Shown: one piece after another, positions 3,611-26,838 of the stretch
Numbering within the stretch: position 1 is the first letter of the stretch
Layout: every line of letters starts with the position of its first letter
Source of the DNA: Escherichia phage vB_EcoM_ESCO49
Sequence record: OM386663.1
Length of the DNA stretch: 64,000 nt
Direction: 5' to 3' (one strand)
Program-made: the position numbers and the translations under genes
Notes under the pieces: model-generated
What the model was told of the DNA's origin: nothing
Seen by the model: only the letters and a program-made list of their open reading frames with translations
Database searches by the model: none

Positions 3611-11641
<8,031 letters not shown>

Positions 11642-23192: not shown

Positions 23193-23355
23193 GGAGAAAC
23201 CACAATGTACGTCAGAGACATACTGTATAAGTCTTCCTATAAAGTATAACTCTGTAAAAAAGCCCTGTCTAAAAATACTCTTCGGTAGCGAAAGGAAGAA
23301 TACTTATAGCAGGGCATTATTATTATTTTAATTGAGAGAGAGTAAAATAACTTGG

Positions 23356-23428
23356 AGAATCCGAAGGGACTTGAACCCTTATAAACCTGTTTTGCAGACA
23401 GGCACATATCCATTTCTGTCACGGATTC
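23356..23428 (-). tRNA. tRNA-Cys (GCA)
   Basis: acceptor 7 bp, T-arm AAGGG-TTCAAGT-CCCTT, anticodon stem CCTGT/ACAGG, loop CUGCAAA. Confidence 0.7.
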
Positions 23429-23436
23429 GAAATTGG

Positions 23437-23525
23437 GGGAAGATACCAGACTTGAACTGGTACACCGATTTCTCAGCTACTGGCAGTTTAGCAAACTGCT
23501 CCCTTACCTTTAGGGTTAATCTTCC
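23437..23525 (-). tRNA. tRNA-Ser (GCU), long variable arm
   Basis: 89 nt; T-arm, anticodon stem GCAGT/ACTGC, plus-strand loop TTAGCAA. Confidence 0.65.
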
Positions 23526-23526
23526 A

Positions 23527-24309
23527 TTATCTCTGTAATGCGCTCTTCATTTCTGGTGTTGCAATAGTATCAATCACACCAGTTTTACAAGCATCATCAA
23601 ACCAGTCTGGTAAGATACCTGCTAAGAACCCATTGATATTCGTTTTAAGGTACTCTGCAATAAGGGCAGCTTCTTCTTCAATCATCTGCACAACTTCATC
23701 TGCATAAGCTGTAATCTTTGAGATACCTTCATTAATCTTACTAACAGCCTGATTAGCTAAATCAGAAACAGTCTCAAGACCCTTATCAATAGCGTCTTGT
23801 AAGTCACTTAACACACCATTAACACTGTCTAGTGTGCTGTTAATCATGTCAATAGCTTGCTGACCATACTCTGTAGCAACACCCATAATACCACTAAATG
23901 GTGTACAACCAACTTGTTCTCCTGCTGCACCCATAACATTGGAGTATCCCTTTGCTACCTGCATACGTGATGAAAACTCATCAATAGACTTTTGACCGTA
24001 GTCTGTTAGGGTCTTAGTAGTTGCTGTAGTGCTTGTAAGGCTTGTTGTAAAGCTGTTTAGAAGGACTGTTGTGAGTCCAGCAGCAACAAGCTTCTCCTTC
24101 ATTGTAGGGTCTGTTACAGAGCTAATAGAGCTTACAAGTGATGTAGAGGCAGCTACGGTTCCACCGAGAACTGCTGCACCAGTAATAAGTGGGTTAGAAA
24201 ACCCTCTACCGGTTTTTAAGAGATTAAAAATCTCCTTACCTTGTTCTGTCATCTCTTTCATTAAGCACCTTTGAAATTGGTACTCCATATCGGATTCGAA
24301 CCGATACAT
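23527..24309 (-). CDS. hypothetical protein
   Basis: 260 aa; Ser/Thr/Ala-rich middle; embedded in tRNA region. Confidence 0.4.
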   Translation of the reverse strand: MYRFESDMEYQFQRCLMKEMTEQGKEIFNLLKTGRGFSNPLITGAAVLGGTVAASTSLVSSISSVTDPTMKEKLVAAGLTTVLLNSFTTSLTSTTATTKTLTDYGQKSIDEFSSRMQVAKGYSNVMGAAGEQVGCTPFSGIMGVATEYGQQAIDMINSTLDSVNGVLSDLQDAIDKGLETVSDLANQAVSKINEGISKITAYADEVVQMIEEEAALIAEYLKTNINGFLAGILPDWFDDACKTGVIDTIATPEMKSALQR

Positions 24310-24356
24310 AACACAGATTTTAAGTCTGGCCTCTCTGCCAATTGGAGTAATGGAGC
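24281..24356 (-). tRNA. tRNA, anticodon read as UAA (Leu-type), standard length
   Basis: acceptor GCUCCAU/AUGGAGU (G1-U72), T-arm ATCGG-TTCGAAT-CCGAT, 4 bp anticodon stem, loop CUUAAAA, A73. Confidence 0.5.
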
Positions 24357-24362
24357 ATTGGC

Positions 24363-24434
24363 TGGGGATGTTGGAATTGAACCAACTTCTTCGATTTCAA
24401 AGACCGAGGTTTTAACCTTGTAAACTAATCCCCT
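24363..24434 (-). tRNA. tRNA-Gln (UUG)
   Basis: T-loop TTCAATT; anticodon stem with one G-U; plus-strand loop TTCAAAG. Confidence 0.6.
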
Positions 24435-24442
24435 TTAAATCT

Positions 24443-25000
24443 TTACTTTCTCAGTGGATGAATAAAGAATGCCAACATAACTCTTTCCCTTGAGAATGCT
24501 CTTTCTTCTGGGACAACACTTTTTAGTTTCCATCCAATATAAATTCTCCAGTAAAACTGTTTACCAAAGATTTTAATTGATGGGATAAAAGCGAATAATC
24601 CCCAAGCATTGCTATTCCACATTAGGAGATAACCAGTCTGATTATCTTCAGGGTCAGAACTTACGCTGATATTACCTTTCCACTTAGTAACATCTTTTAC
24701 ATCTCTTCCTAATACATGGTAAGAGAAGTTATAAGCTTTGTTTCTCCAGAGCCATCCAACTCTCTGCATGTAGACACCCAGCTTACCAATCTTTCTAATC
24801 TTAGCCCATCTTTTAACGTGGCCTTCATCACCATCAATCGGGTTGTCATAGGTCTCCATCCATCTGAATCCAAAAGGTAGATGCCCTTTCTTCTCACTGT
24901 AGAATGGAACCACGAAAGGTGCTAAGATGACTGCTAGGGTTGCTGCAAATGGTTCTAGTAAAGCTAGGAAAATCCATGAAGCATACTTCAAATATCTCAT
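24443..25000 (-). CDS. hypothetical membrane protein
   Basis: 185 aa; hydrophobic N-terminus; between tRNA genes. Confidence 0.4.
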   Translation of the reverse strand: MRYLKYASWIFLALLEPFAATLAVILAPFVVPFYSEKKGHLPFGFRWMETYDNPIDGDEGHVKRWAKIRKIGKLGVYMQRVGWLWRNKAYNFSYHVLGRDVKDVTKWKGNISVSSDPEDNQTGYLLMWNSNAWGLFAFIPSIKIFGKQFYWRIYIGWKLKSVVPEERAFSRERVMLAFFIHPLRK

Positions 25001-25022
25001 CTAAATAGCCTCTTAAAATTGG

Positions 25023-25098
25023 TGTTCCAAGACGGATTCGAACCGTCACTAATACAAGGTTTGAGCTTGCATCCTCTGCCAATTGGGATACTGGAACA
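25023..25098 (-). tRNA. tRNA, anticodon read as CAA (Leu-type), standard length
   Basis: T-arm GACGG-TTCGAAT-CCGTC perfect; acceptor 7 bp with one G-U; loop CUCAAAC; A73. Confidence 0.5.
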
Positions 25099-25101
25099 TG
25101 G

Positions 25102-25173
25102 TACTCACTAAAGGACTTGAACCTTTTTCTTCATCTTGTAAGGGTGATGTTTTACCATATAAACTAAGCGAGT
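25102..25173 (-). tRNA. tRNA-Val (UAC), tentative
   Basis: T-arm AAAGG-TTCAAGT-CCTTT; D-arm GUUU-AUAUGGUA-AAAC; anticodon stem with one mismatch; plus loop TTGTAAG. Confidence 0.5.
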
Positions 25174-25271
25174 GTGAAAGAGGTCTGAAGTTGTGCCGCT
25201 AACTCAACTCCGTGGAATTTGTTACGGTCTTCAGTTGACACCAGCGGTCTTTCACTTGACCTCTGAATTGG

Positions 25272-25345
25272 TGCTGCTCACAGGACTCGAACCTGCATTT
25301 CCATCCTTACAAGGGATGTGTAATAGCCAATTATACGAAAGCAGC
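25272..25345 (-). tRNA. tRNA-Thr (UGU)
   Basis: perfect anticodon stem CATCC/GGATG, loop CUUGUAA; T-arm and acceptor present. Confidence 0.7.
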
Positions 25346-25354
25346 ATTATTTGG

Positions 25355-25426
25355 AGCATCCAGAGGGAATCGAACCCTCAACCTCAGTTTGGAAGACTGT
25401 AATTTTCCCGTTTAAACTATGGATGC
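25355..25426 (-). tRNA. tRNA-Gly (UCC)
   Basis: T-arm GAGGG-TTCGATT-CCCTC; acceptor perfect; loop CUUCCAA. Confidence 0.6.
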
Positions 25427-25435
25427 ACTAATTGG

Positions 25436-25508
25436 TGGAGAAGCAGGGAATTGAACCCTGTACTTAAGTTTGCAAAACTTATGTTTTAACCATGTAAACT
25501 ACATCCCC
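25436..25508 (-). tRNA. tRNA-Ala (UGC)
   Basis: anticodon stem TAAGT/ACTTA, loop UUUGCAA; acceptor GGGGAUG with G3-U70. Confidence 0.6.
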
Positions 25509-25517
25509 AATGTTTGG

Positions 25518-25590
25518 TACAGGTGGAGGGAATTGAACCCATCGTCTTACTGATTAAGAGTCAGCCGCATAACCATTTTGCTACACCTGC
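25518..25590 (-). tRNA. tRNA-Lys (CUU)
   Basis: plus loop TTAAGAG; acceptor 7 bp; T-loop TTCAATT with short GGG/CCC stem. Confidence 0.55.
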
Positions 25591-25600
25591 ATTAATTTGG

Positions 25601-25674
25601 TACACCTAGAGAGATTCGAACTCACACTGAGCAGATTCTAAGTCTGCTGCCTCTACCAGTTGGGCTATAGGTGC
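25601..25674 (-). tRNA. tRNA, anticodon read as UAG (Leu-type), standard length
   Basis: perfect anticodon stem GCAGA/TCTGC, loop CUUAGAA; acceptor 7 bp (G1-U72); D-loop with GG; A73; 5 nt variable loop. Confidence 0.55.
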
Positions 25675-25750
25675 ATTAAACCTTTTTAGAGAACTTCTAA
25701 GAACCTAAGCAACAAGGTTCCACAACAAGCCGTAATAACCTTAGAAGCCC

Positions 25751-25773
25751 TCTAAAAAGACCTAAAAAGGTCT
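25751..25773 (-). terminator. weak terminator-like hairpin (AGACC-n6-GGTCT plus U-run)
   Basis: 5 bp stem followed by UUUUAG on minus RNA. Confidence 0.3.
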
Positions 25774-25930
25774 TTGCATAGTCTTGTTTAATCCGGTGAC
25801 TAGAACCTTTGGAGAGCTTGATATTATCTCTTCTCCGTGACACCTGCTAGGTGCTTTATGAGTGTGTACGACAATACACGCGGGATACCAAAGCAACACC
25901 CTAATGAAGCTTGGCTTTAAATCTTATTAG

Positions 25931-26018
25931 GCGGTAAGTAAAGGAGTCGAACCCTCACCGTATCTCTACAGTGGCAACTGTTTTCAAGACAGTTTGGCTA
26001 CCATTAGCCGCTACCTAC
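25931..26018 (-). tRNA. tRNA-Ser (UGA), long variable arm
   Basis: 88 nt; anticodon stem AACTGT/ACAGTT 6 bp, plus loop TTTCAAG; acceptor 7 bp incl. one G-U. Confidence 0.55.
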
Positions 26019-26034
26019 CCCTAATAAGACTTTG

Positions 26035-26114
26035 GCATGGGACGGAGGAGTTGAACCCCTTTGAAACGGTGTTGGAAGCCGTTGCTCATGCCTTAGAGTC
26101 TTAACATCGTCCCA
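26035..26114 (-). tRNA. tRNA-like gene, identity unresolved (aberrant core)
   Basis: perfect 7 bp acceptor ATGGGAC/GTCCCAT, encoded CCA, T-loop TTCAACT; internal stem AACGG/CCGTT with 9 nt loop CUUCCAACA; extra nucleotides before D-arm. Confidence 0.4.
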
Positions 26115-26261
26115 TACTATAATTCGAAGCTTACCGTATTATCTCAACACTGTAAAGCCCCTTCTCAGATTATTTACATGTTCTGGAAAACATGAGATAC
26201 AGACCACCTCCCTACAGGAAGACCCGCTTAGGTCGTCTAAGTAATCTGCTAACTAAATTGG

Positions 26262-26340
26262 TCGAGGCGGCAGGACTCGAACCCGCATACTCCACTTACT
26301 CGGTTAACGTCTGTTTAGAAGACAGATGAGATACGCCCCG
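26262..26340 (-). tRNA. tRNA-like gene, identity unresolved (anticodon-like loop CUUCUAA, Arg-UCU-like, displaced)
   Basis: acceptor CGGGGCG/CGCCUCG all paired, T-arm GCAGG-TTCGAGT-CCCGC; perfect TCTGT/ACAGA hairpin sits where D-arm is expected. Confidence 0.35.
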
Positions 26341-26680
26341 TAATTATCTTTAAAGACTCTCTTAGAAAGCCCTTAAAGATGCCCACCTTATTAATCATAC
26401 CGTGGGCTAGTACGCCAAATTCTTTGATGAGGGATTGGAAGACCTCACTGGTGTTTAGCCTATCAAGCTACTGCCAGAAAAACATTGTCGTTTGCATTTA
26501 TTTTAAATTTGCAAAATAGACGCTACGCAACGAAAACTATTCAGAATATGTACAACAAATTTCCCCACATTGTGTTACGTCTAACGCTCATGTATTGGTG
26601 TTTGAATTATACATATTATGAAGTATTTTAGTTACTATAAAGTGGTCACATCTCAATGTCAACAACTTTATTGAAATTGG

Positions 26681-26753
26681 TACTGGTAGGTGGAATCGAA
26701 CCACCGACGTTCCCTTATCAGGGGAGTGTTATAACCTTCTTAACTATACCAGC
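26681..26753 (-). tRNA. tRNA-Ile (GAU)
   Basis: T-arm GGTGG-TTCGATT-CCACC perfect; plus loop TTATCAG. Confidence 0.6.
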
Positions 26754-26757
26754 TTGG

Positions 26758-26831
26758 AGGTTCAGATGGGAATCGAACCCACATTCATAGGGCTTATGAG
26801 ACCCTTGCATTACCTTATCTGCGACTGAACC
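26758..26831 (-). tRNA. tRNA with CAU anticodon (Met or Ile2)
   Basis: perfect acceptor GGTTCAG/CTGAACC; plus loop TTATGAG. Confidence 0.55.
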
Positions 26832-26838
26832 ATTTTGG

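Follow-up and report, generated by a model that had tools for sequence, protein, structure and literature searches.

The closest described precedent for a leucine transfer RNA (tRNA) with a short variable loop is the tRNA-Leu(CAA) of Streptomyces coelicolor, termed "type I", whose variable loop is the 5-nt ACAGC (Fan, Huang, Ji & Wang, NAR 2019, PMC6614811). That tRNA was leucylated in vitro, deletion of its gene was not achievable, the single leucyl-tRNA synthetase (LeuRS) of the species charges both of its tRNA-Leu types, and the minimal variable-loop length for activity was 5 nt (PMC6614811). Phages are not mentioned in that study, and among the open-access literature the term "type I tRNALeu" was found in it alone. 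Here we report on three tRNA-Leu genes, with anticodons UAA, CAA and UAG, in a stretch of 64,000 nt from Escherichia phage vB_EcoM_ESCO49 (record OM386663.1; the whole stretch is referred to as the window). Judged by their sequences, they look like true leucine tRNAs of the bacterial type from which the long arm has been lost, and their variable loops of 5–7 nt respect the minimum reported for type I.

The canonical leucine tRNAs are class II, and the earlier note on this DNA had stated that those of bacteria and phage T4 normally carry a long arm. This held for leuZ, leuX and leuW of E. coli and for phages T4 and T5, whose variable arms are hairpins of 13–15 nt that are absent from the window genes. 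The anticodons, A73, U8-A14, A15-U48, a 3-bp D-stem and the 11-nt D-loop NAAYYGGYAGA are otherwise common to these canonical tRNAs and the window genes, and leuZ has G1-U72 as well. Animal mitochondrial tRNA-Leu, for example human mt-tRNA-Leu(UUR), is likewise without a long variable arm and has A73 and A14 as identity elements (PMC9976931), but it has degenerate D and T loops and a dedicated mitochondrial LeuRS, whereas the window genes have canonical GG and TTCGAAT elbows and a phage context; the human mitochondrial tRNA-Leu is not charged by the S. coelicolor LeuRS (PMC6614811). Minimalist, arm-less leucine tRNA bodies have also been engineered from an E. coli sequence (Larkin et al. 2002, described in the identity review PMC9976931), in contrast to the natural genes of the window. 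According to the review, E. coli LeuRS (EcLeuRS) still charges them as long as A73 is present and the D/T tertiary contacts are undisturbed. These constructs are the best precedent for the view that the host enzyme could accept the phage tRNAs.

Three short tRNA-Leu genes in the phage tRNA cluster

By sequence the phage is a Felixounavirus (Felix O1-like): over 200 such phages, which infect Salmonella, E. coli, Shigella and Citrobacter, have a counterpart of the region at 94–97% identity. GenBank records including that of Felix O1 annotate three tRNA-Leu at syntenic positions; the genes are thus already on record, and their architecture is not discussed in the annotations. ARAGORN, which the earlier note had proposed to run on the cluster, called three minus-strand tRNA-Leu genes with anticodons UAA, CAA and UAG, and each was matched over the full span (positions 1–71) of the Rfam tRNA covariance model RF00005 with a score above the gathering score of 29:

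24278..24356, minus strand, type I tRNA-Leu(UAA) with short variable loop (ARAGORN; Rfam 24281-24356, 47.5 bits, E=6e-8)
25020..25097, minus strand, type I tRNA-Leu(CAA) (ARAGORN; Rfam 25023-25097, 44.0 bits, E=6e-7)
25598..25674, minus strand, type I tRNA-Leu(UAG) (ARAGORN; Rfam 25601-25674, 57.3 bits, E=1e-10)

With such E-values the three Rfam matches are far beyond chance. In the order UAA, CAA and UAG the genes measure 79, 78 and 77 nt with the encoded CCA and 76, 75 and 74 nt without it, which agrees with the three genes of 74–76 nt folded by eye in the earlier note, whose coordinates (24281-25674) are the Rfam boundaries and whose anticodon loops were recovered unchanged. A covariance-model fold had been named there as the result that might place the anticodon elsewhere or reveal an overlooked long arm; in the Rfam alignment the anticodon stays in position, and the variable loop holds only a few inserted bases.

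All three genes have a 7-bp acceptor stem, canonical elbows (G18G19 and TTCGAAT) and 7-nt anticodon loops with U33, namely CUUAAAA (UAA), CUCAAAC (CAA) and CUUAGAA (UAG). The variable regions are GTTATGT (7 nt) in Leu(UAA), ATTAGT (6 nt) in Leu(CAA) and TCAGT (5 nt) in Leu(UAG), within the 5–8 nt read earlier and against the 13–15 nt of the host, T4 and T5 genes, and their last base is U48 in each case. The segment parse, which presumes a 5-bp anticodon stem and a 5-bp T stem, also agreed with the earlier note in finding A73 in all three genes and G1-U72 in two of them (UAA and UAG), the CAA species having G1-C72. Isotypes are given throughout as ARAGORN assigned them from the anticodon.

The two serine tRNAs and the tyrosine tRNA of the same cluster, for which long arms had likewise been noted, served as internal controls, and their variable arms are indeed hairpins:

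23434-23525, minus strand, tRNA-Ser(GCU), 92 nt, long variable arm (ARAGORN)
25930-26019, minus strand, tRNA-Ser(UGA), 90 nt, long variable arm (ARAGORN)
27106-27193, minus strand, tRNA-Tyr(GUA), 88 nt, long variable arm (ARAGORN)

The anticodon loops differ from those of the host. Leu(UAG) has A37 where host leuW (loop UUUAGGU) has G37, the site of the host m1G37 modification, and C32 opens the loop in all three phage genes where the host has U32. The same anticodon-loop differences are listed in the paper on phage Sf14, where they are tied to nuclease evasion.

Probable leucine identity of the short tRNAs

The D-arms of the three genes, CTC-CAATTGGCAGA-GAG in Leu(UAA), TCC-CAATTGGCAGA-GGA in Leu(CAA) and GCC-CAACTGGTAGA-GGC in Leu(UAG), consist of a 3-bp stem and an 11-nt loop CAAYTGGYAGA, with the same length and consensus as the D-loop of host leuZ, leuW and leuX (RAAYYGGTAGA). 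In the isolate-phage set a regular expression for this D-arm matched 19 of 24 leucine tRNAs in comparison to 3 of 165 tRNAs of other isotypes, and in a larger viral set the signature was found, among the matches listed, in about 80% of leucine tRNAs and 2% of non-class-II tRNAs. The genes also carry U8, A14, A15, G18G19, A at position 20a and U48. The identity set of E. coli LeuRS comprises A73, A14, A15-U48, G18G19 and A20a, and the enzyme needs neither the anticodon nor the long arm, arm-less variants staying active (review PMC9976931).

When the anticodon was masked and the variable region removed, the tRNAs closest to each window tRNA were other short leucine tRNAs at an identity of 0.70–0.81, above every other isotype. 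For Sf14, a relative of the Citrobacter phage Moogle, the published tRNAscan-SE isotype scores are highest for Leu in all three genes (67.4, 49.1 and 60.2 bits). None of the three window genes has G3-U70, a long arm of the type recognized by seryl-tRNA synthetase (SerRS) or an anticodon cognate to the anticodon-reading synthetases, so that no other E. coli synthetase's identity set fits them. By established identity rules, some of which the review PMC9976931 covers, SerRS requires the long arm and anticodon-reading synthetases need their cognate anticodons.

The earlier note had weighed class-I-like leucine isoacceptors against some other identity. The former is favoured by the Leu-type D-arm, the leucine determinants, the neighbours found with masked sequences, the isotype scores of the Sf14 tRNAs, the lack of a fit to any other synthetase, the codon usage described below and the Streptomyces precedent.

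Short tRNA-Leu genes across phages

When the 77-nt Leu(UAG) gene was used as a blastn query, annotated tRNA-Leu of phages from many hosts aligned to it over nearly the full length and free of gaps. With its anticodon masked and its variable region left out, Leu(UAG) was 73–81% identical to short tRNA-Leu of Pseudomonas, Mycobacterium, Gordonia, Streptomyces, Cronobacter, Enterococcus and Prochlorococcus phages and of a crAss-like phage. Among the phage representatives that were retrieved, leucine genes of 74–78 nt were found beside long serine and tyrosine genes. Those with short tRNA-Leu were:

Bixzunavirus (Mycobacterium)
Streptomyces phage Elmer
Gordonia phage Forza
Cronobacter phage CR3 (Certrevirus)
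a Pseudomonas phage
Enterococcus Schiekvirus, with one short and one long tRNA-Leu
cyanophage P-RSM6
a crAss-like phage
an Aeromonas Demerecviridae phage

Short tRNA-Leu is present in phages of at least five host phyla; its carriers include phages of Pseudomonadota, Actinomycetota, Bacillota and Cyanobacteria and a crAss-like phage. T4 and T5, the classical models, carry long-arm tRNA-Leu of 87 and 85 nt, which may explain the scant notice that the short form has received. An earlier description of short-arm phage tRNA-Leu was not found in the open-access literature, and the breadth of type I tRNA-Leu in phages, including those of hosts with a LeuRS reported as unable to charge it, appears to be undescribed.

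Two scans of IMG/VR were made with Leu D-loop and T-loop anchors at class I or class II spacing (at least 120 loci each) and pooled with the isolate phages to give at least 168 unique short and at least 154 unique long leucine tRNAs (322 together). D-loop-anchored scans enrich for the signature and unselected subsets were computed separately; virus and host may be mis-assigned for contigs from IMG/VR and from metagenome-assembled genomes (MAGs). The ratio of short to long genes was taken from a viral sample anchored on a tRNA-Met motif, which is less biased. In this sample 19 of 70 leucine genes (27%) were short, in comparison to 1 of 46 serine and 1 of 26 tyrosine genes, and 15 of the 36 loci bearing tRNA-Leu had at least one short copy. 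LeuRS does not need the long arm, SerRS is dependent on it and bacterial tyrosyl-tRNA synthetase (TyrRS) contacts it, so leucine tRNAs would be alone among class II tRNAs in being able to lose the arm, with TyrRS only probably dependent. The 27% of short leucine genes against about 2–4% for serine and tyrosine agrees with a loss confined to leucine.

Anatomy and covariation of the short form

Among the matches listed, the 322 phage leucine tRNAs, short and long alike, have A73 (99%), U48 (98%) and a 17-nt D-arm. In the same matches position 9 is A in 71% of the short tRNAs (52 of 87 in the subset unselected by the scan pattern) in comparison to G in 99% of the long ones. The 12-23 pair of the short form is often C-G instead of G-C and covaries with position 9, and position 13, a C, shows Watson-Crick covariation with the G in the ...AGA that closes the D-loop, the pair being C-G in 98, G-U in 7 and U-A in 5 of 122 tRNAs. 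Among tRNAs unselected by the pattern this pairing was found in 81% of short and 23% of long forms. Canonical long forms combine G9 and G12-C23 with a purine at position 13 (R13) that is unable to pair with the D-loop G, whereas all three window genes have A9, C12-G23 and C13-G.

In 109 family members of fixed length, 97.7% of stem cells pair, against 41–45% when the 3' partner is slid, and compensatory double changes occur in 20 of 21 pairs; the short-loop cloverleaf is therefore under selection. Within the genus itself (Moogle and Salmonella phage FG1m) there is too little variation to show compensatory change for the enterobacterial phages alone.

The G1-U72 pair, which the earlier note had mentioned, turned out to be nothing special. 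Among the matches listed, 42% of the short phage leucine tRNAs had it, as did 37% of the long ones (about 40% of each) and 13% of other isotypes. It was rejected as a hallmark of the short form, and it is not diagnostic because it is common to both forms and also found in host leuZ.

Chromosomal relatives and the actinobacterial family

The same pattern was scanned against one genome per bacterial species. This gave at least 120 pattern matches, including at least 51 pattern-bearing short tRNAs with leucine anticodons and at least 49 assigned by ARAGORN to tRNA-Trp, and the bacterial loci listed held at least 84 short leucine genes in all. Single chromosomal short leucine genes occur in the Actinomycetota genera Mycobacterium, Amycolatopsis, Nocardia, Pseudonocardia and Glycomyces, where they sit in ordinary chromosomal neighbourhoods; Leu(CAA) adjoins a response-regulator/ANTAR gene in Mycobacterium asiaticum and Amycolatopsis, and thiolase and adenylate cyclase genes are also nearby in M. 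asiaticum. In M. tuberculosis, the papers on MenT toxins give long loops only to tRNA-Leu-2, -3 and -5, implying that the others are short. The architecture, called unusual in the earlier note, is not unique to this phage, since many other phages and Actinomycetota chromosomes have it, and a phage-specific invention was rejected on the single chromosomal genes of Mycobacterium, Amycolatopsis, Nocardia and Pseudonocardia and on that of Streptomyces (PMC6614811).

Leu(UAG) shares 16 of 17 D-arm and 16 of 17 T-arm positions with the chromosomal Leu(CAA) of Amycolatopsis, as well as an xCAGT loop, and over its full length it is 76–78% identical to several actinobacterial type I genes in comparison to 56–61% to the leucine genes of E. 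coli. The identity of Leu(UAA) and Leu(CAA) to actinobacterial type I genes was 0.59–0.75, and that of the three window genes to E. coli tRNA-Leu was 0.51–0.62. Phage and actinobacterial type I genes have a core signature in common, A9/C12-G23 with the C13-G pair. This sharing of D-arm, T-arm, loop and overall identity makes the phage genes members of the known type I family.

The two groups are alike in a loop of about 5 nt (xCAGY), a Leu-type D-arm, A73 and long-arm tRNA-Ser alongside. The window genes differ in being phage-borne, in forming a set of three isoacceptors (UAA, CAA and UAG), in having to function in Enterobacteria and in encoding CCA, and two of the three have loops of 6–7 nt instead of about 5 nt. 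The S. coelicolor tRNA, which was compared by its variable loop ACAGC only, has C48 where the window tRNAs have U48 (A15-U48).

Outside the Actinomycetota, MAG contigs of Acidobacteriota, Planctomycetota and Myxococcota had 15–34 tRNA genes per 8 kb with every leucine isoacceptor short-armed; phage fragments, mobile "tRNA arrays" and native genes are candidates for what they represent. The tRNA-Trp genes met in the bacterial scan (at least 49) carry a Leu-like D-loop, AAYTGGYAGA.

Conservation and change within Felix-like phages

Of 263 phage records, 215 have Leu(UAA) at 100% identity, in comparison to the surrounding 3.8 kb, which is mostly 90–97% identical. Leu(CAA) is identical in Felix O1 and Moogle, and the leucine genes of Moogle are near-identical to those of the window. 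The cluster is otherwise a mosaic: homing endonuclease genes are present, tRNA genes have been gained and lost, and Felix O1 has another Leu(UAG) allele.

That allele of Felix O1 (3981-4058 of the retrieved locus) is also short and very different in sequence, GGGAGAT...TACCA, with the D-arm ATGGTAATTGGTAAACCT. The allele of the window (GCACCTA...) was found at 90% identity or more in only about 90 of about 270 related records, and this tRNA gene has therefore been replaced within the genus. In Salmonella phage FG1m (3999-4076 of the retrieved locus) a chimeric tRNA has the 5' two-thirds of Leu(CAA) and the 3' end of Leu(UAA), joined at the shared GGTTCGAATCCG T-loop, and its acceptor stem is mismatched as a result. 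It looks like a deletion by recombination between two paralogous type I leucine genes with loss of the intervening DNA.

Codon usage and probable charging by the host enzyme

The comparison of codon usage that the earlier note had suggested found UUA, CUA and CUU enriched and CUG depleted in the open reading frames (ORFs) of the window. When the leucine codons of the window ORFs are set against those of 49 kb of E. coli sequence, the share of UUA is 28% against 11%, that of CUA 12% against 2%, that of CUU 27% against 13% and that of CUG 14% against 50%; the G+C content of the phage is 39%. The three anticodons cover codons that the phage overuses relative to its host, which by sequence fits a decoding role. 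Among the large ORFs of the window that were scanned none resembles an aminoacyl-tRNA synthetase, and no Felix-like phage was among the 61 tblastn matches to E. coli LeuRS. As no LeuRS was found in Felix-like phages, the phage tRNAs must rely on that of the host.

Starting from the genes, their architecture, conservation, covariation, family kinship, distribution, codon bias and the lack of a phage LeuRS, all of which the analysis showed, we infer that the three genes encode functional type I leucine tRNAs that are charged by host LeuRS and used in translation, with a probability of about 0.7. The tRNA cluster would be transcribed and its tRNAs, with CCA already encoded, processed. Host LeuRS would then load leucine by reading A73 and the elbow and core (U8-A14, A15-U48, G18G19 and A20a) while ignoring the anticodon. 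In decoding, the UAA species may read UUA and UUG, the CAA species UUG, and the UAG species CUA and CUG and possibly CUU. These codons are frequent in this phage of 39% G+C and poorly served by a host whose leucine decoding favours CUG. The core appears to have been rebuilt around the short loop through the new Watson-Crick pair between position 13 and the G of the D-loop ...AGA and through A9 with C12-G23. The family, to which the chromosomal type I genes of Actinomycetota also belong, has spread widely among phages.

Several points weigh against this reading. EcLeuRS gave no leucylation of the S. coelicolor type I tRNA-Leu(CAA), although it showed about half activity towards tRNA-Leu(UAA), a Streptomyces type II tRNA (PMC6614811). 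In the same paper EcLeuRS is seen as a type-II-only enzyme, charging of type I is credited to a leucine-specific domain of the Streptomyces enzyme, and the crystal structure is read as the C-terminal domain of EcLeuRS touching the variable arm at 47f-47i (PMC6614811). Nothing like the window leucine tRNAs was found in 5,426 complete E. coli genomes, so there is no precedent within the host, and no reports of charging, expression or suppression by Felix O1-type tRNAs were found in the open-access literature. The cloverleaves themselves have a C27-U43 mismatch in Leu(UAA) and a U50-U64 mismatch in the T-stem of Leu(UAG).

The failure of EcLeuRS on the Streptomyces tRNA, together with a family origin that looks actinobacterial, speaks for an alternative in which the tRNAs are made but cannot be charged by enterobacterial LeuRS. 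They would then be baggage from a family adapted to a LeuRS of the actinobacterial type or have a non-translational role, such as decoys for tRNA-targeting defence enzymes, a role in keeping with the proposal in the literature that phage tRNAs are counter-measures to host tRNases. We consider this alternative unlikely. The three isoacceptors have kept intact cloverleafs and near-perfect conservation in more than 250 enterobacterial phage genomes despite the mosaic cluster, and their anticodons fit the codons enriched in the phage, while three anticodons and A73 would be needless for a decoy. Type I tRNA-Leu is also kept by several unrelated lineages of γ-proteobacterial phages, namely the Certrevirus CR3, a Pseudomonas phage and an Aeromonas Demerecviridae phage. 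Lastly, the phage tRNAs have A15-U48, a determinant for E. coli LeuRS, whereas the Streptomyces tRNA has C48, and from the sequences this base is the obvious candidate for the nucleotide that decides whether EcLeuRS charges type I.

Loss of the arm may alternatively be an adaptive counter-defence, whereby arm-less leucine tRNAs evade host toxins or nucleases for which the long variable arm of class II tRNAs is the docking site, and are still accepted by LeuRS, leucine being the only isotype able to lose the arm as SerRS, and probably TyrRS, need it. The specificity of the loss (27% short against about 2–4% for serine and tyrosine) is as expected, and the literature records that human SLFN11 binds type II tRNAs and that bacterial Schlafen-type nucleases cleave tRNA in phage defence. 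However, permissive neutral loss also explains an arm loss restricted to leucine, Actinomycetota have genes of this architecture as a normal part of their chromosomes, and T4 and T5 manage with long-arm tRNA-Leu. Selection of tRNA-Leu by its long arm is not known for any bacterial defence enzyme, and MenT3 prefers tRNA-Ser and modifies tRNA-Leu weakly (MenT papers). On this balance we regard the counter-defence explanation as quite improbable. A link to Schlafen nucleases is speculative, as the papers on the bacterial enzymes describe cleavage in the anticodon arm or of bulk tRNA, without any preference for class II.

That the tRNAs have leucine anticodons but are loaded with another amino acid, recoding UUR and CUA in phage proteins, is scarcely credible: the missing long arm is a departure from canonical class II tRNA-Leu, but the tRNA body is Leu-like and unlike any other isotype, published isotype models rank Leu highest in the Sf14 relative, G3-U70, the SerRS-type long arm and the cognate anticodons of other synthetases are absent, the same family is leucylated in Streptomyces (PMC6614811), and recoding a six-codon amino acid in all phage genes would be highly disruptive.

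A broader form of the preferred reading, charging by the host LeuRS, can also be put forward. In this form enterobacterial LeuRS, although described as an enzyme for long-arm tRNA-Leu only, would charge the type I tRNAs of the phage by reading A73 and the A15-U48/D-loop core, and phages would repeatedly have adopted the arm-less form for portability across host phyla, for invisibility to defence enzymes that dock on the arm, or for both, leucine being the sole class II isotype able to lose it. Taken as a whole this is a tentative proposal of low probability. Possible gains from arm loss include portability between host phyla or escape from arm-docking enzymes such as MenT3-type nucleotidyltransferases.

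Fan and co-workers treat type I as a rarity of Streptomyces with a special LeuRS (PMC6614811), and the window shows that a classic Salmonella/E. coli phage has this architecture too, with about a quarter of phage tRNA-Leu genes being arm-less in the tRNA-Met-anchored sample. This raises the question of natural type I charging by an E. coli-type LeuRS and of the nucleotide that decides it. The genes also offer natural compact leucine scaffolds to tRNA engineers, give annotators a reason against flagging short leucine genes as pseudogenes, and may provide a new angle on phage tRNAs and defence.

Other features of the tRNA cluster and neighbouring genes

The remaining features of the cluster considered here were as follows:

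23353..27708, minus strand, tRNA gene cluster with 19 ARAGORN tRNAs and 1 tRNA-like gene seen by Rfam only
26262-26340, minus strand, tRNA-like gene with anticodon UCU (Arg) and loop CUUCUAA (Rfam 33.4 bits; no ARAGORN call)
26755-26831 and 27425-27501, minus strand, two tRNAs with CAU anticodons, candidates for elongator Met, initiator or lysidine-dependent Ile2

In the tRNA-like gene at 26262-26340 the acceptor stem, the T-arm and the anticodon arm are good, the D-arm is only 4 nt long, and the variable region, at about 20 nt, holds a D-loop-like AGUGG. Genes annotated as "tRNA-OTHER" or pseudo-tRNAs occur in the clusters of other Felix-like records. ARAGORN and Rfam made no call in the intra-cluster stretches 25675-25929, 26020-26261, 26341-26677 and 26912-27105, and about 26030-26110 the sequence is tRNA-like to the eye. 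In the T5 record the corresponding part of the cluster contains several annotated "stable RNAs of unknown function", and for the T5 tRNAs that record also reports tests by anticodon replacement.

Downstream of Leu(UAA), the longest version of the ORF at 23527-24309 (minus strand) starts inside the 3' end of the tRNA, with an overlap at 24278-24309, and its real start is probably a downstream ATG. Its counterpart in related phages is annotated as a holin or membrane protein. Beside the cluster, a gene for a protein of 471 aa (27873-29288, minus strand) has the Pfam domains DUF7788 and DUF2828, and its counterpart is annotated as "RNA-binding protein" in Felix O1, Moogle and FG1m. A "Ro-like RNA binding protein" is annotated next to the tRNA clusters of Streptomyces phage Elmer and Gordonia phage Forza, its likeness to the 471-aa gene being one of annotation; by annotation, a gene for an RNA-binding protein adjoining the tRNA cluster thus recurs in unrelated phages.

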